64,000 nt of DNA from Prevotella sp. GTDB lineage: Bacteria > Bacteroidota > Bacteroidia > Bacteroidales > Bacteroidaceae. The position numbers and the translations under genes were made by a program. The notes below the pieces were generated by a model. That model did no database searches. It was not told the origin of the DNA and saw only the letters and a list, made by a program, of their open reading frames with translations. The number at the start of each line of letters is the position of its first letter. The stretch's first letter is position 1. Shown one piece after another: positions 43,348 through 50,058 of this stretch. The stretch spans positions 38,187 to 102,186 of the forward strand of contig JAFLSE010000004.1 of assembly GCA_022511075.1 (NCBI GenBank), written 5' to 3'.

Positions 43348-43908
43348 ATGAAGAAAATCTTTGGAATGCTGCTGTTGGCAGTGATTACATTCTCCATCTG
43401 CGGTTGCATGAAGAAGCAGGAGCAACGCACAGATGCAGAAGCCACCAAGAGCGAAGCAACGGAACAAGAGGAACTGGCAGAGGAAGCCGACTATATGTAT
43501 ATCGACCTCACGATGAACGATATAAACGGAAACAGTCGCAAACTGAGCGATTTCTGCGGAAAAGGCAACTATGTACTCATCGACTTCTGGGCAAGCTGGT
43601 GCGGACCTTGCATCGGCGAAATGCCGAACATAATAGAAAACTACAACAAGTACCACTCTAAGGGCTTTGACATTGTTGGTATATCATTTGACAAGAACAA
43701 GGAAGCATGGGTAAGCGCAGTTGCTGAACTTGGACTGGAGTGGCATCAACTCAGTGATTTGGCTGGCTGGAGCAGCATAGGTGCATCGACATACGGCATA
43801 ACGAGCATTCCCGCAAACATACTCGTTGACGGCGAAGGGCGGATTGTTGCCGGCAATCTGCGTGGCGCAGCATTAGGTGAGAAGTTGCAGGAGATATACG
43901 GACAATAA
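43348..43908 (+). CDS. TlpA-family thioredoxin-like lipoprotein
   Basis: DFWASWCGPC, SIP..ILVD. Confidence 0.88.
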   Translation: MKKIFGMLLLAVITFSICGCMKKQEQRTDAEATKSEATEQEELAEEADYMYIDLTMNDINGNSRKLSDFCGKGNYVLIDFWASWCGPCIGEMPNIIENYNKYHSKGFDIVGISFDKNKEAWVSAVAELGLEWHQLSDLAGWSSIGASTYGITSIPANILVDGEGRIVAGNLRGAALGEKLQEIYGQ

Positions 43909-43932
43909 CGACACCGAAAAAAGAAAAGTAAT

Positions 43933-44412
43933 ATGGAGAAGATAGCGAGTTTCACGATAGACCACGACCGTCTGCTGCGCGGCATTTACGTATCGCGCAA
44001 GGACAAGGTTGGCAACGACACAGTAACGACATTCGACATAAGGATGAAAGAGCCTAACAGGGAGCCTGCCTTGCATCCTGGTGCACTGCACACCATAGAG
44101 CATCTTGCGGCAACATACCTGCGCAACGATAAAGAGTGGAAAGACAGGATTGTGTATTGGGGTCCTATGGGCTGTCTTACGGGCAACTACCTATTGATGC
44201 GTGGCGACCTCGAAAGCAGCGACATAGTGGAACTGATGCAAAGGGCATTCCGTTTCGTAGCAGAGTTTGAAGGCGATATTCCTGGAGCAGCACCACGCGA
44301 CTGCGGCAACTGGCTGCTGCACGACCTGCCGATGGCACGCTACGAAGCACACAAGTATCTCACAGAAGTATTAGAGTGCATAAAGCAGGAGAATCTTGAA
44401 TATCCGAAATAA
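43933..44412 (+). CDS. luxS: S-ribosylhomocysteine lyase
   Basis: SFTIDH, HTIEH, PMGCLTG, CGN. Confidence 0.95.
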   Translation: MEKIASFTIDHDRLLRGIYVSRKDKVGNDTVTTFDIRMKEPNREPALHPGALHTIEHLAATYLRNDKEWKDRIVYWGPMGCLTGNYLLMRGDLESSDIVELMQRAFRFVAEFEGDIPGAAPRDCGNWLLHDLPMARYEAHKYLTEVLECIKQENLEYPK

Positions 44413-45753: not shown

Positions 45754-46590
45754 TTACTCTACCCACCTTACAATTCTTATACTCACCTCATAGAGCAGAT
45801 AAAGTGGTATGGCTACGAGTACCAGCGTCATTATGTCGGGCGGCGTTATCACTGCTGCGACAAGCAATATAGCAATAAATGCATGTTTGCGATATTGCGA
45901 CAGCATATCACAAGTGACAAACCCCATCTTACCGACAAAGAAAGCTATCACTGGCAACTGAAATACAACGTCCATAAGCAAAGTAAGCGATGTGAAAGTA
46001 GATACGTATGAATCGAGCGTTATAGTGCTTACCACTTTTGCCGACACGCTGTAAGTACCGAGAAAACGAAACGAAATAGGGAACAGCACGAAATAGGACA
46101 TCAATACGCCGGCAATAAACAGCAGGTATATCGTGCCTGCCACCTGCACAGAATAACGCCGTTCATTGTCATAAAGTGCAGGAGAAATAAACCTGAATAA
46201 CTCAAAAAGGATATATGGTGACGCACCGAGTAATCCAAGGCTCACTGCAGTAGTTATATGCGTCATAAACTGACTTGACAAATCCGTGGCTATCAGGTCT
46301 ACGTGATACGGCTCAAAGCGGAAGTCTATCCCCACAGCTTGCATCGCCTCCTCTATCCAGCGATATGTACAAAAATCCCATTCGCTCGGTGCGAGCAGTA
46401 ATCGCCAAGTGATGTCCTTTAGACAAAACACCACTATGGCAATAGCTCCAGCAACAGCAAGAATACGGAAGAGCATTTGGCGGAACACCTCCAAGTGTCC
46501 GCCAAAGGTAAGGAGTCCACTTTCTTCAACGTCATTGATGTCACTTAGTTTCTTTGTGCTCTGCTTCTTCTTTTTCCCCTTCCTCGCCAT
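45754..46590 (-). CDS. tatC: Twin-arginine translocase subunit TatC
   Basis: [36 protein letters not shown]; probable start MARKG (46590), exact start uncertain. Confidence 0.92.
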
Positions 46591-46789
46591 TTGTTTCCTC
46601 TTCCTTTTCTTCCTCTTTTTCTTCGTCCTCTTCCAAAGGCTCATGCATTCCTTTCTTGAAACTCTGCACTCCCTGCCCAAGTCCTTTCATCATCTCGGGC
46701 AGTTTCTTTCCACCAAAGAGCAGCAGGGCAAGACCGCCTACAAGCAGCAGTTCCGTCGTTCCGATGAATAATACTAATTGTGATACCAT
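46541..46789 (-). CDS. tatA: Twin-arginine translocase subunit TatA/E
   Basis: GTTELLL...[26 protein letters not shown] plus acidic tail. Confidence 0.92.
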
Positions 46790-46793
46790 ACGC

Positions 46794-47072
46794 CTACTGA
46801 ATTACCAAGAAAATTTCGCAAGTATCGAAGTTTATCTCCCAGTTGCCGTTCTCATCAGATTCCCATTGGTATTTCTCTGCCATTCTGTCCCACCAGTTTT
46901 GGAACTTCGTGCCAGTCTCGCCCAAGTCCTTAACCAATTTCTCATACAGCTCGGCATTGTCTGCCGTGAGAATTTTTGCCAGTTCATTCAGTCCGTTGCG
47001 ACGTTCAAAAAGCGTCTGAATCTCAATACGCTCCTCGGGTGTCACCTGCCCTACAAGTTTTTTCATTACCAT
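46794..47072 (-). CDS. CXXX-repeat peptide modification system small protein
   Basis: 92 aa, translationally coupled to the maturase (ATGGTAA overlap); [22 protein letters not shown] matches my recollection of the family. Confidence 0.7.
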
Positions 47073-48025
47073 TCGTCTCTTTTATCAAAAGGGTCTAAAT
47101 AATCTATTTCCTTAATATCTTCCTGCTCTGGCAGGAATGTGCCGTACTTGCGTATATTGTTCAGCAATTCACGGCTTGCGTTGCGCTCAATATGTGCCAT
47201 AACGCATTGCTCATAGCTCGGCGTGTTTACTTCCAATGTCAGTTTACGGTTTAGCCAAACGCAGCGTTTGCAATGGTATGCATCACAATGGCGACAAATA
47301 GGAGCATACTCCAACTTATAGAGTTGCTTGTTCTTAATATCAAGCCCATTTTCCAAATCGCCGACACTATCAGCCTCGTTTTCATAATAGAATGCAGCAC
47401 ATACATAGAACTTACCGTTAGGAGCAAGTGTTATATTTGTATCTCCTGCTCCGCAGTTGTTCATCTCTTCCAACATCATGCGGTCTGTTAATAGATTCAA
47501 CTGTGGCGATTTACCCTCAACATACATTTTTTCTATATGTCCAGACAAACTTTGGAGTACTTTCTTATAAGTCTCAAAATCTGCTTCAGAGAAAGAATCG
47601 ACATCTGTTATAACCACGTTCAGACGAGCAACCTTAGCCAAAGCACATTTTAGGGAAAGATAACGGTCAAACAAGTCTGCTTTTGTGGTACGCAGTACAT
47701 AAGCTTTGTCTACTTCAAAAGTGAAATAATCTAATCCTATCCAATCGTGGAAAATTACGACATCAGCCTCGTCTACAAGACTTTTATCCTCACATAACGA
47801 CGAAATGATGTTGCTATGATCTATCGTTTCTATAACTTCCTTATACTCTAATGGAAGATCATAATCTGGATAGACAAATTGAATCATCAGGTTTTCCGTC
47901 ATGGCATATCGGATTCCCAGTTTCAATACATCAATAGGAATCAGCTTGCTTTCTCGTCTGTCGTTGTCATAATGACAATACGACGTACTCGTATCATCCA
48001 ACAGTATAATAAGGTATTGCATCAT
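47066..48025 (-). CDS. CXXX-repeat peptide maturase partner: degenerate radical SAM domain with SPASM Cys set
   Basis: No CxxxCxxC (only TSTSYCHY); retains NCGAG..C and CRHCDAYHCKRC...C. Confidence 0.75.
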   Translation of the reverse strand: MMQYLIILLDDTSTSYCHYDNDRRESKLIPIDVLKLGIRYAMTENLMIQFVYPDYDLPLEYKEVIETIDHSNIISSLCEDKSLVDEADVVIFHDWIGLDYFTFEVDKAYVLRTTKADLFDRYLSLKCALAKVARLNVVITDVDSFSEADFETYKKVLQSLSGHIEKMYVEGKSPQLNLLTDRMMLEEMNNCGAGDTNITLAPNGKFYVCAAFYYENEADSVGDLENGLDIKNKQLYKLEYAPICRHCDAYHCKRCVWLNRKLTLEVNTPSYEQCVMAHIERNASRELLNNIRKYGTFLPEQEDIKEIDYLDPFDKRDEW

Positions 48026-48029
48026 AGTC

Positions 48030-49265
48030 TTAGCAGATTTCTTGTTTTACTTCCCGTTTGTTCTTCTCAAAATCCTCACCCATACCTTCAAGTTCTATCT
48101 TGCGGTATAGCTTATTCCAGTAGTAGTTGTTTGCACGAACACGGGCTTTGTGCATCTTGCATATAGCTGTGCTGCGTTGATAAATTGTATTGGTATCAGC
48201 AGCATCATAGTTTTCTCCTTGACACCATGCGCACCCGCTGGCCACTTCACAATTAATACATTCTTGTTTGGACTGGCTCAAACGATCAAGCACAAGAAAT
48301 GGGCGCAGCTTGTTTTTGTCAATACCTTCATCCACATTGCCAATTATACAAGCCTTTTTTTCACGAAGTGAATATTGAGCAAACCGTGTGCAGGGATAGA
48401 AGATGCCATTTGCATCAACAGCAAGCATCTTTCCTGCGCCACACCAGTTCTGATTGTCTAATCGGTGGTCAAGCGGCTTTCCTATATTTTCAGAAAAGAA
48501 TGAACAAGCATAATCTGCATACCAGCCTCCATCGATAATTGCATCGGCAAGTTGCATCAGTTGGTTCTCAAACAGTCTGTCATCTCCATTCTCCCACACA
48601 TCCTCAAACACTACATTGATGTTCACTTCGTGTATGCCGAGCGAGTAGAGGTGCAACACACTTTCTTTGATATAGGGGATGTCAGCACTGCTTATCGTTA
48701 CCTTTGTTCCCGAATTAGGGAATTGTGCCTGCCATAATGGGATATTGCGCACTACATCATGATAAGATCCGCGCTCCTCCGTATCATTGTCATCTCGGAA
48801 TTTGTAAATACGGTTTAAATTGTGCTTCTTTTCCGTTCCATCAATGGTTATGCCAATACTTACATGTTCTCCATTTTTTTTTATAAAATTTTGCACCTTG
48901 TCAGTATGGTAGTTGATGCCATTGGTTGCAAATGAGAATCTGTAAGAATTAAACCAATGGTGATTTCTGCGATACATCTCAGTTTTAAGGTAGTCGCAAA
49001 TCCTGTCTATGAGATCGATTTCAAGAAACGGTTCTCCGCCAATAAAATCCCACACAACGGCTTCCTCACAAAAATCTTCCTTATGGTCAAGGATATAATC
49101 TATTGCTTGTTTTGCTACTTTCCAGGACATTCGCTCTTTTGCGTTTTTTCCAACAAGGTAGCAGTACTTGCAGGCAAGCTGGCAATCTTTTGTGACAATG
49201 AATGTTACATTCTTTGCCGTACCAGCATGCCATTCTGCGTTTGCTTTCTTTATTAAGTCTTTCAT
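48030..49265 (-). CDS. Radical SAM/SPASM peptide maturase, CXXX-repeat target family
   Basis: CQLACKYC, FIGGEP, SPASM WCGAG..YPC..CINCEVASGCAWC..C; start moved to MKDLIKK (49265). Confidence 0.93.
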   Translation of the reverse strand: MKDLIKKANAEWHAGTAKNVTFIVTKDCQLACKYCYLVGKNAKERMSWKVAKQAIDYILDHKEDFCEEAVVWDFIGGEPFLEIDLIDRICDYLKTEMYRRNHHWFNSYRFSFATNGINYHTDKVQNFIKKNGEHVSIGITIDGTEKKHNLNRIYKFRDDNDTEERGSYHDVVRNIPLWQAQFPNSGTKVTISSADIPYIKESVLHLYSLGIHEVNINVVFEDVWENGDDRLFENQLMQLADAIIDGGWYADYACSFFSENIGKPLDHRLDNQNWCGAGKMLAVDANGIFYPCTRFAQYSLREKKACIIGNVDEGIDKNKLRPFLVLDRLSQSKQECINCEVASGCAWCQGENYDAADTNTIYQRSTAICKMHKARVRANNYYWNKLYRKIELEGMGEDFEKNKREVKQEIC

Positions 49266-49285
49266 AAAAATTAGTACAATTAAAG

Positions 49286-49320
49286 AACAGCCCTGCGCTG
49301 CATGATGCACTAGGGCTGTT
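49286..49320 (-). terminator. Stem-loop between the precursor and maturase genes
   Basis: AACAGCCCT / AGGGCTGTT 9-bp arms with inner TGCA/TGCA pairing. Confidence 0.6.
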
Positions 49321-49335
49321 TAAACCTCAAAAGGG

Positions 49336-49611
49336 TTATTTACTAGAACCAGTACACCATTTTGTACAAGCACCTCCACAAGTGACGGTACAAGTACCAG
49401 TACACCATTTGGTACAGCAACCTCCACAAGTAGTAGTGCAACTACCACTACAAGTTCTACAGCCGGAGTTTGGGGCGTTTTCCATTGCGTTTACTACATT
49501 AGGTACACTCGACAGCACAATAGCCCCCAAAATAGGCAACGCACCTTTTGCTGCCTTCTTGAAAAACTCTCTTCTTGATTGGAGTTCTTCGTTCTTTTTG
49601 TTTTTCTTCAT
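49336..49611 (-). CDS. Cys-Xaa-Xaa-Xaa repeat radical-SAM target precursor peptide with Tat signal
   Basis: SRREFFK twin-arginine motif, hydrophobic h-region, VNA cleavage-like site, then 11 Cys mostly at i+4 spacing. Confidence 0.9.
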   Translation of the reverse strand: MKKNKKNEELQSRREFFKKAAKGALPILGAIVLSSVPNVVNAMENAPNSGCRTCSGSCTTTCGGCCTKWCTGTCTVTCGGACTKWCTGSSK

Positions 49612-49677
49612 AACGTTAGAAATTTAAAAAGTGCCTATGAACTCCCTAATTCAGCGTTAATATTAATAAGGTATGGG

Positions 49678-50022
49678 AAATAAAAAAGACGTGGGAGTTA
49701 ATTTCTCCGCGCCTATCCCTGATCTCAGGCCTTCGCATTGCCCCTTTCCAAGGATAAGCAACGCAAGCCAGCCCACGCCGAGTGATATTATATAAAACCA
49801 AAATACATCTACAGCAAAATAGCCATAGTTGCCATTGGGATATAATACACCCACGCGGACGCTTCAGTTGCATTACACCTGTGGAAAGTTTCTAAGTTGC
49901 GAAGTTAGAGATCACAGATAGTAACGTCCGAAAACGTCCTTCCGAGACCAGCCCTACAAACGGCTTGGTGGTCTCATTCCCTCGATGTCTTGACCCGCCA
50001 TCCCTCGAAGGCTGGCTTAGTC
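49678..50022 (-). promoter_or_regulatory. Putative structured 5' leader of the CXXX operon ending in a terminator-like hairpin
   Basis: Several complementary segments and GGCGCGGAG-AAATTAA-CTCCCACGTC-TTTTTT; function inferred. Confidence 0.5.
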
Positions 50023-50027
50023 GGCTA

Positions 50028-50058
50028 CAAAATTAGCAATAATTGTCAAAACAACAAA
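50028..50058 (-). promoter_or_regulatory. Sigma-A promoter for the CXXX operon
   Basis: Minus strand TTTG (50058-50055)-N19-TAATTTTG (50035-50028). Confidence 0.65.

Follow-up and report, generated by a model that had tools for sequence, protein, structure and literature searches.

Precursors of peptides that are ribosomally synthesized and then modified after translation (RiPPs) usually have a private leader, a protease and an ATP-binding cassette (ABC) exporter. The described enzymes closest to those considered here are PapB (freyrasin, a ranthipeptide), CteB (SCIFF) and CcpM, all with a radical S-adenosylmethionine (rSAM) core, with SPASM cysteines and with substrates made of Cys-rich repeats. 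QhpD is likewise an rSAM/SPASM enzyme for the cysteines of a small polypeptide, QhpC, which is cross-linked in the cytoplasm before its move to the periplasm; QhpC relies on a cleavable leader, on a peptidase dedicated to it and on an exporter of the ABC type, and becomes an enzyme subunit. Another arrangement is found in bufferins, periplasmic copper-binding RiPPs that are modified by MNIO enzymes and carry Sec signal peptides; these Sec-signal RiPPs were first described in 2024 (PMC11626156). Here we describe an operon found at positions 45754-50058 of a 64,000-nucleotide stretch of Prevotella sp. DNA (assembly GCA_022511075.1, contig JAFLSE010000004.1, positions 38,187 to 102,186), hereafter called the window. 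It is probably a CXXX-repeat maturation operon in which a twin-arginine translocation (Tat) signal and co-encoded TatA and TatC proteins take the place of the leader, peptidase and ABC exporter usual for RiPPs.

A preliminary description, made from the letters of the window, had proposed six co-oriented, tightly coupled genes behind one promoter, and all six open reading frames (ORFs) were indeed found on the minus strand (45754-49611), preceded by a leader of about 400 nt and a promoter motif. In the direction of transcription they are the precursor gene (49336-49611, 91 residues), an rSAM/SPASM gene (48030-49265, 411 residues counted from an ATG, in a frame open to 49310), the gene for a second maturase (47066-48025, 319 residues), a gene for a 92-residue protein (46794-47072), tatA (46541-46789, 82 residues with an acidic tail) and tatC (45754-46590, 278 residues from MARKG, in a frame open to 46680). 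The tatC start at 46590 is a predicted one, and could lie further upstream. The precursor and rSAM genes lie 70 nt apart; the gene for the second maturase follows after 4 nt and overlaps that for the 92-residue protein by 7 nt, and tatA comes 4 nt further on and overlaps tatC by about 50 nt. Because the gaps are short or the genes overlap, the six genes can be considered tightly coupled. The absence of an ABC exporter, a leader peptidase and an obvious immunity gene, also pointed out in the preliminary description, holds for the ORFs of the window and its flanks within about 3 kb of the operon.

Five of the six proteins score above the cut-offs of NCBIfam models: the rSAM/SPASM enzyme with TIGR04115 (623.6 bits, cut-off 350), the second maturase with TIGR04119, "CXXX repeat peptide maturase" (254.6 bits, cut-off 150), the 92-residue "CXXX repeat peptide modification system" protein with TIGR04116 (103.6 bits, cut-off 50), TatA with TIGR01411 (55.9 bits, cut-off 53.9) and TatC with TIGR00945 (144.5 bits, cut-off 132.7). 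Pfam agrees for the rSAM enzyme, TatA (PF02416, 48.4 bits, cut-off 21) and TatC (PF00902, 186.5 bits, cut-off 25.1). The locus thereby resembles the NCBIfam CXXX repeat peptide modification system (TIGR04115, TIGR04119, TIGR04116 and TIGR04117), with three modification proteins far above cut-off and the Cys-Xaa3 repeat in common. These gene families are already catalogued and their names stand in public records; as stated in the preliminary description, they have been defined only computationally. According to that description, no chemically characterized product of this Bacteroidales type is known, and we found no paper in the open-access literature on the product, the chemistry or a Tat coupling of the CXXX system.

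The precursor carries a twin-arginine signal (SRREFFKKAAKGALPILG...VNA), in which SRREFFKK is followed by the h-region AAKGALPILGAIVLSSVP and VNA. A twin-arginine motif of the S/T-R-R-x-F-L-K type, a hydrophobic h-region and an A-x-A-type site are all present, and VNA is followed by MENAPNSGC, a signal-peptidase-I type of arrangement. The N-terminal part of the TIGR04117 model aligns with this signal. The core that follows has 49 residues, 11 of them Cys, in 8 CxxxC steps. The signal and the number of cysteines are thus as previously noted.

Relatives of the operon were collected from a sample of 401 genomes of the same order and from a wider scan of species-representative genomes, which yielded 576 loci; the best 80 of these 576 (L043-L122), whose rSAM enzymes are 75-82% identical, are hereafter called close relatives, and almost all come from gut or rumen Bacteroidales. 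In the window and 89 related loci, 148 distinct ORFs resemble precursors. A single locus often holds two to five of them, and the twin arginine (RR) is present in 146 of the 148. In an alignment of 145 rows, the percentages of conservation along the signal are R 100, R 100, x, F 98, F 96, K 88, K 59, A 77, A 77 and K 72 and, further on, L 88, P 94, I 72, L 65 and G 70. Between loci, signals are 58% identical and cores 31%. Hence, conservation of the putative signal extends well past the Tat consensus.

The source genome (2.86 Mb, 98% complete) harbors another tatA-tatC pair on a different contig (C79:7107-8034), beside ordinary Tat substrates, so that the operon pair is a second copy and not the housekeeping one. 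The housekeeping region (C79:4998-8034) contains tatA-tatC, then a gene for a 503-residue 4Fe-4S-type membrane protein and one for a lipoprotein with an RR signal, and a second RR protein is encoded nearby; classical Tat substrates thus appear to be very few in this genome. In the order-level sample, TIGR04115 was above cut-off in 10 of the 401 genomes, and a genus-mate lacked it. A tatA-tatC pair directly follows the gene for the 92-residue protein in 6 of these 10 loci, and 5 of the 6 genomes concerned have two TatC genes. A single TatC gene is found in all four cluster genomes without linkage, as well as in the genus-mate without the cluster. Across the sample, TatC is present in 328 of 401 genomes, with two matches in only 19, five of which are genomes that carry the cluster plus tatAC.

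Of the 80 close-relative loci, 65 have tatA-tatC right after the gene for the 92-residue protein (median gap, 20 nt), 6 are unlinked despite at least 1.5 kb of room, and 9 could not be judged; linkage is thus kept in 65 of 71 evaluable loci. In a tree of 70 linked and 40 unlinked TatC copies, 58 of the linked proteins form one clade (SH-aLRT 95) that contains none of the 40 unlinked ones. The linked TatC of the window lies within a 40-member clade made of linked copies only (support 97), and the unlinked TatC of the same genome forms a pair with the genus-mate copy (support 97). The linked or unlinked label needs 4 changes on the tree, compared with 33 in shuffles. Together, the linkage and the tree indicate that the translocase travels with the operon. 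Supported branches force at least two origins of linkage, and linked TatAC was probably recruited more than once. We also looked at the tail and charge of TatA as a possible mark of the linked copy, and no clear difference was found with the 7 unlinked TatAs compared. Altogether, family membership, the Tat-type signal and a second, co-inherited tatAC can be considered established at the level of sequence comparison.

Relatives without a Tat signal provided an informative comparison. In one locus of the same order (L027, 6076-11588), the precursor lacks RR and tatAC is missing; instead, the locus encodes an ABC exporter (PF00664 and PF00005) and an S8 peptidase, as well as a LytTR regulator, the small protein and a single enzyme of about 720 residues in which the rSAM protein and its partner are fused. 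A similar locus is found on plasmid pAPRE01 of Anaerococcus prevotii (L157, NC_013164.1:44-4287): a 56-residue precursor with four Cys in CxxxC spacing and no RR, a fused maturase of 728 residues, an ABC transporter and a small protein reduced to a remnant of 41 residues, again with no tatAC. Among the 80 close-relative loci, in contrast, a homologue of the ABC exporter was detected within 10 kb in only one (about 3 kb away and not adjacent), and no S8-type peptidase was found within 10 kb in any. Across the loci examined, RR signals and ABC exporters exclude each other, a further point that can be considered established by sequence comparison. Therefore, the same predicted enzyme set comes in two export formats, one with a leader and an ABC exporter, the other with a Tat signal and, usually, tatAC. 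These two formats provide the strongest indirect support for the idea put forward in the preliminary description.

The rSAM/SPASM enzyme harbors CQLACKYC, a CxxxCxxC motif, at residues 28-35, and its SPASM cysteines are present. Its best characterized profile relatives are PapB, CcpM, the SCIFF maturase (95.6 bits, cut-off 425) and QhpD (TIGR03906, E 5.5e-27), and among solved structures CteB (5WGG, E 4.8e-21) comes closest. Judged by these scores, the enzyme is homologous to thioether synthases of the PapB/CteB type but not an equivalog. Only about 27 residues stand ahead of the motif for the SAM cluster. The structural alignment starts only at residue 97 of CteB, and the operon enzyme therefore has no counterpart of the leader-binding domain at the CteB N-terminus, a RiPP recognition element (RRE). 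Other differences from the PapB, CteB and CcpM systems, aside from a PapB score under cut-off, are a substrate without the CX3D/E acceptor, the presence of an extra partner and of the 92-residue protein, and a Tat signal in place of leader, peptidase and ABC exporter. The QhpD/QhpC system differs in its dehydrogenase genes, none of which was found at the locus among the ORFs of the window and its flanks.

It is plausible that the Tat signal doubles as the RiPP leader for the maturase, because the signal is conserved beyond the needs of Tat, the rSAM enzyme lacks an RRE domain, and the signal is the only conserved segment outside the core. In bufferin, the one studied signal-peptide RiPP, the signal is nevertheless dispensable for modification (PMC11626156). 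Bufferins are comparable to the proposed operon product in that an N-terminal export signal replaces a dedicated exporter, Cys-derived modifications are cytoplasmic and the product is periplasmic. They differ in the use of Sec rather than Tat, in their MNIO/DUF2063 pair rather than rSAM/SPASM, and in having no private translocase; no MNIO (DUF692) or DUF2063 family member was detected with NCBIfam and Pfam among the six operon proteins or in the flanks. The likeness is therefore one of analogy only.

The second maturase was originally described as a degenerate rSAM protein, a view that our analysis bears out. It has LLDDTSTSYCH where CxxxCxxC would be expected; in 62 of 75 distinct homologues, the first 40 residues contain just one Cys, and CxxxCxxC is missing family-wide. 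An AlphaFold model (pLDDT 82) presents a partial TIM barrel and a SPASM domain, and its best fold matches are CteB (E 2.7e-8), anSME, SuiB and PqqE. As the SAM-cluster cysteines are missing and the fold matches rSAM/SPASM enzymes, the protein can be considered a pseudo-rSAM/SPASM partner. When the two maturases were compared by BLASTP, only the SPASM segment was aligned (E 5e-5), and fold comparison was therefore needed to detect their kinship. The rSAM enzyme and its partner are fused into one protein in L027 and in Anaerococcus, which argues that both act as one unit.

The 92-residue protein is the most conserved component, with 65-95% identity across loci and 7328 database clusters at 90% identity; a homologue search with it listed near-identical proteins only. 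In its AlphaFold model (pLDDT 91), a strand leads into a long helical hairpin, which two strands follow. Classical Tat substrates served by TorD, DmsD or NapD offer a parallel, as they mature in the cytoplasm before Tat carries them out and have the gene for a small accessory protein beside their own. We considered the 92-residue protein as a PqqD-like RRE or as a Tat chaperone of the NapD/TorD kind, and neither proposal was supported: its predicted fold matches none of these proteins, and a Foldseek search of the PDB returned no match better than E 0.44, with generic helical hairpins only. A role as a Tat chaperone is thus a guess only.

Precursor cores contain 20% Cys across the family. Among 2462 spacings between consecutive cysteines, a value of exactly 4 accounts for 88.4% and a value of 3 for 6.4%. 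The first X position of the repeat favors S, K or T, the second G (39%) and the third S, G or T (69%), and family-wide register statistics revealed no enrichment of Asp or Glu. Precursors range from 80 to 416 residues and from 2 to 69 Cys, and in some of them a larger domain is attached: one very large precursor has 341 residues and 69 Cys (L023), and fusions to a non-repeat domain are found in proteins of 240 (L108) and 416 residues (L117). About 21 of the 146 RR-bearing precursors are lipoproteins, and 17 of these, from 16 loci, have acidic residues after the +1 Cys, as in CSKDD, CKKDD, CEIDEE and CSKEDD. The export signal of Bacteroidota lipoproteins, C-X-K-(D/E)2-X or SDDDD, drives surface exposure (PMC5080379), and the putative acidic motif of the 17 precursors matches it. 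Lipoprotein precursors with K/S-(D/E)2-3 after the +1 Cys are found, among others, in L022, L023, L025, L057, L058, L062, L087, L106, L108, L109, L117 and L119.

A tentative sequence of events can be proposed. Transcription would start at a promoter of the TTTG/TAnnTTTG type and proceed through a structured leader with a terminator-like stem; because the leader ends in such a stem, read-through is probably regulated. The 91-residue precursor would be synthesized in the cytoplasm, and the TIGR04115 enzyme, with its degenerate paralogue and the 92-residue protein, would modify the core with a Cys at every fourth position. Homology to PapB, CteB and QhpD suggests that the modification would most likely be a set of thioether cross-links from Cys sulfur to carbon, a proposal to which we give roughly an even chance. 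Modification would presumably precede export. The modified peptide would be rigid and hence a poor Sec substrate, which makes export by Tat the likely route; bulky macrocyclic peptides are poor Sec substrates (PMC11626156). Comparative genomics suggests that export would take place mainly via the operon's own TatAC. Signal peptidase I would then cut after VNA, freeing a periplasmic product of about 49 residues. In paralogues with a lipobox and an acidic signal, the product would be lipid-anchored instead, and probably surface-exposed.

Several observations weigh against this proposal. The precursor reaches 47.1 bits on TIGR04117, just under the cut-off of 50, and its signal alone 14.6 bits on TIGR01409, also just under cut-off (16.7). 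The rSAM enzyme obtains 188 bits (2.6e-55) on the PapB model, whose cut-off is 340, and the X positions of the repeat offer no Asp/Glu acceptor as in PapB substrates; because of both, the type of cross-link may differ from that made by PapB. The fold search with the 92-residue protein, mentioned above, matched no known leader-binding or Tat-chaperone fold. Concerning the translocase, linked tatAC is absent from 6 of 71 close relatives and from 3 of 9 RR-type loci at the order level, some linked TatCs fall outside the main clade, and one genome (G073) carries the linked TatC copy only. As there are nine RR-type loci without tatAC, and the genomes checked then have a single Tat system, the private tatAC is not essential. 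Hence, the adjective "dedicated" applied to TatA/TatC in the preliminary description is too strong. On the whole, the observation made in that description was confirmed and its interpretation was partly supported.

There is a different explanation, which we consider unlikely. The Cys-repeat polypeptide might be a Tat-exported protein loaded with a cofactor or metal (Fe-S, Cu, Zn or polysulfide); the rSAM/SPASM pair and the 92-residue protein would insert the cofactor or alter the cysteines without cross-links, and Tat would be used because loading is cytoplasmic. Cofactor-loaded proteins are the classical Tat cargo, and a core with about 20% Cys, strict i/i+4 spacing, small neighbors and no acidic acceptor would suit such a function. 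Precursors of 341-416 residues and up to 69 Cys are protein-sized rather than peptide-sized, some operons have inserted genes for secreted thioredoxin-like and DnaJ-type zinc-finger proteins, and SPASM relatives such as anSME alter Cys without cross-linking. However, the nearest characterized relatives of the rSAM enzyme (PapB, CcpM, the SCIFF maturase and QhpD, and CteB by structure) all form thioether cross-links, the CxxxC ladder does not resemble the Fe-S motifs that are known, and the non-Tat relatives have short, bacteriocin-like precursors and an ABC exporter.

The latter resemblance has another side, as it also suggests an ordinary antimicrobial RiPP, a bacteriocin that would cross the inner membrane by Tat and then be released, with immunity either intrinsic or encoded elsewhere. 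Members from Firmicutes and of the ABC type do look like bacteriocin loci (short leader peptide, ABC exporter, S8 peptidase, LytTR regulators). The distribution is patchy, as expected from horizontal transfer (10 of 401 genomes, absence from the genus-mate, lower GC content), and multiple hypervariable paralogues are found at each locus. We regard this explanation as quite improbable, since the locus has no immunity gene or outer-membrane release function, and its leader RNA, described below, is common to surface-protein operons. Moreover, paralogues that are lipoproteins, most of them with a surface-export signal, or that are fused to large domains would stay on the cell. The existence of lipoprotein and multi-hundred-residue variants argues against a classical diffusible bacteriocin. 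Given these lipoprotein, surface-signal and protein-sized variants, and the inserted genes for secreted thioredoxin-like and DnaJ-type zinc-finger proteins, an envelope-resident product is favored, and an envelope-associated thiol, metal, redox or structural role seems more likely than a diffusible antibiotic. That the adjacency of tatAC is meaningless, the pair being a hitch-hiking duplicate and the peptide being exported by Sec or not at all, might be argued from the loci in which linked tatAC is missing and from the similarity of linked and unlinked TatA tails, but is hardly credible when linkage spans several families, TatC forms a separate clade with more than one origin, nearly all precursors have RR, gene starts are coupled or overlapping, and RR excludes ABC exporters.

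A Bacteroidota-type motif, TTTG-N19-TAATTTTG, is found by pattern matching at 50028-50058 on the minus strand; it is of the TTTG/TAnnTTTG type, its outermost position, 50058, is the end coordinate given in the preliminary description, and it would function as the promoter. A scan for sigma-70 promoters and terminators, ill-suited to Bacteroidota, gave counts at the level of shuffled sequences. Between the candidate promoter and the precursor gene lies a non-coding 5' leader of about 400 nt (49612-50020, minus strand) with a conserved structured core (49666-49943) that contains multiple helices, a terminal GGCGTGGG...CCCACGTC stem and a T-run. No Rfam family matched the leader at E <= 1. Upstream of precursors, the leader is conserved in 53 of 89 related loci. 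Pairing covers 95.2% of cells (36-50% in slid controls). Changes on both sides are seen in 11 pairs, compared with 5.9 ± 1.4 in shuffles, none of 500 of which reached the observed value.

A profile search of the source genome with the leader detected about 12 copies, each located 50-200 nt upstream of unrelated accessory genes. These encode two BspA-type leucine-rich repeat proteins, several lipoproteins, Tubulin_2 and SPFH proteins, a tyrosine integrase and a NusG/KOW paralogue. Besides that of the window, the copies lie at C24:56677-56938, C24:24377-24651, C66:6832-7109, C60:26204-26443, C141:67513-67780, C87:308-593, C64:72231-72460, C61:49197-49462, C97:66974-67174, C52:178-288 and C79:3240-3448. 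The occurrence of about 12 copies before unrelated genes indicates that the leader is a shared regulatory module rather than an operon-specific element. Antitermination by a NusG paralogue acting on the leader is only a guess. In two Muribaculaceae-type loci, a second leader copy is found about 5 kb downstream of the operon tatC (L075:18537-18785 and L077:18530-18776).

A broader speculation, which we find doubtful, is the following. The extended signal (RRxFFKKAAK..LPILG) would be dual-purpose: a complex of rSAM enzyme, pseudo-rSAM partner and 92-residue protein would read it first, as a leader, and a private TatC that has co-evolved would read it next. Polycysteine rods laddered by thioethers would result, located in the periplasm or, in paralogues with a lipobox and export signal, on the surface, and metals or sulfur species would be bound there. 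The operon would also form part of a regulon in which accessory surface-protein operons have in common an antitermination leader RNA of about 270 nt, possibly read by a NusG paralogue.

Should the proposal of Tat-dependent export be correct, a Tat signal, usually accompanied by its own TatAC, would represent a third export logic for modified peptides, and the operon would exemplify, in nature, a second Tat system linked to its substrate. Gut and rumen Bacteroidales, among them Prevotella, Segatella copri, Xylanibacter and Muribaculaceae, carry the family in abundance; hence, the CXXX product could be a common component of the envelope of major commensals. As the enzyme set occurs both in an ABC-type and in a Tat-type version, a ready-made experimental comparison is at hand.

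The surroundings of the operon comprise a convergent DUF4143 AAA ATPase gene, luxS, a gene for a thioredoxin-like lipoprotein, a truncated RecG-C/helix-turn-helix gene, rplQ and rpoA. GC content is 0.38-0.44 over the operon and 0.45-0.56 further upstream. Comparison with a genome of the same genus did not define an empty insertion site, as only the rpoA/rplQ and luxS flanks match, and they lie 120 kb apart. The thioredoxin-like lipoprotein (TlpA/AhpC-type) and LuxS are encoded on the opposite strand (43348-44412, plus), 1.3-2.4 kb past tatC; the DUF4143 ATPase gene stands in between, and no evidence ties the lipoprotein or LuxS to the operon.

In some operons, additional genes are inserted between those of the partner maturase and the 92-residue protein (L047:12522-13271, L086:12790-13365 and L092:12167-13137). 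Reading of their sequences predicts secreted products, including a thioredoxin-like protein (WCPPS) and proteins with DnaJ-type CxxCxGxG zinc-finger repeats. Three contigs from bins labelled as Clostridium, Clostridia or Lachnospiraceae (L061, L107 and L109) carry operons 77-79% identical to those of Bacteroidales. The linked TatCs of L061 and L107 nest among Prevotellaceae copies, and L109 has no linked TatC; mis-binning is more likely than transfer in these cases. Finally, the overlap of about 50 nt between tatA and tatC in the window (46541-46590, minus strand) is a purine-rich stretch of the GAA/AAG type that is used in two frames, one coding for the acidic tail of TatA and the other for the Lys-rich N-terminus of TatC.

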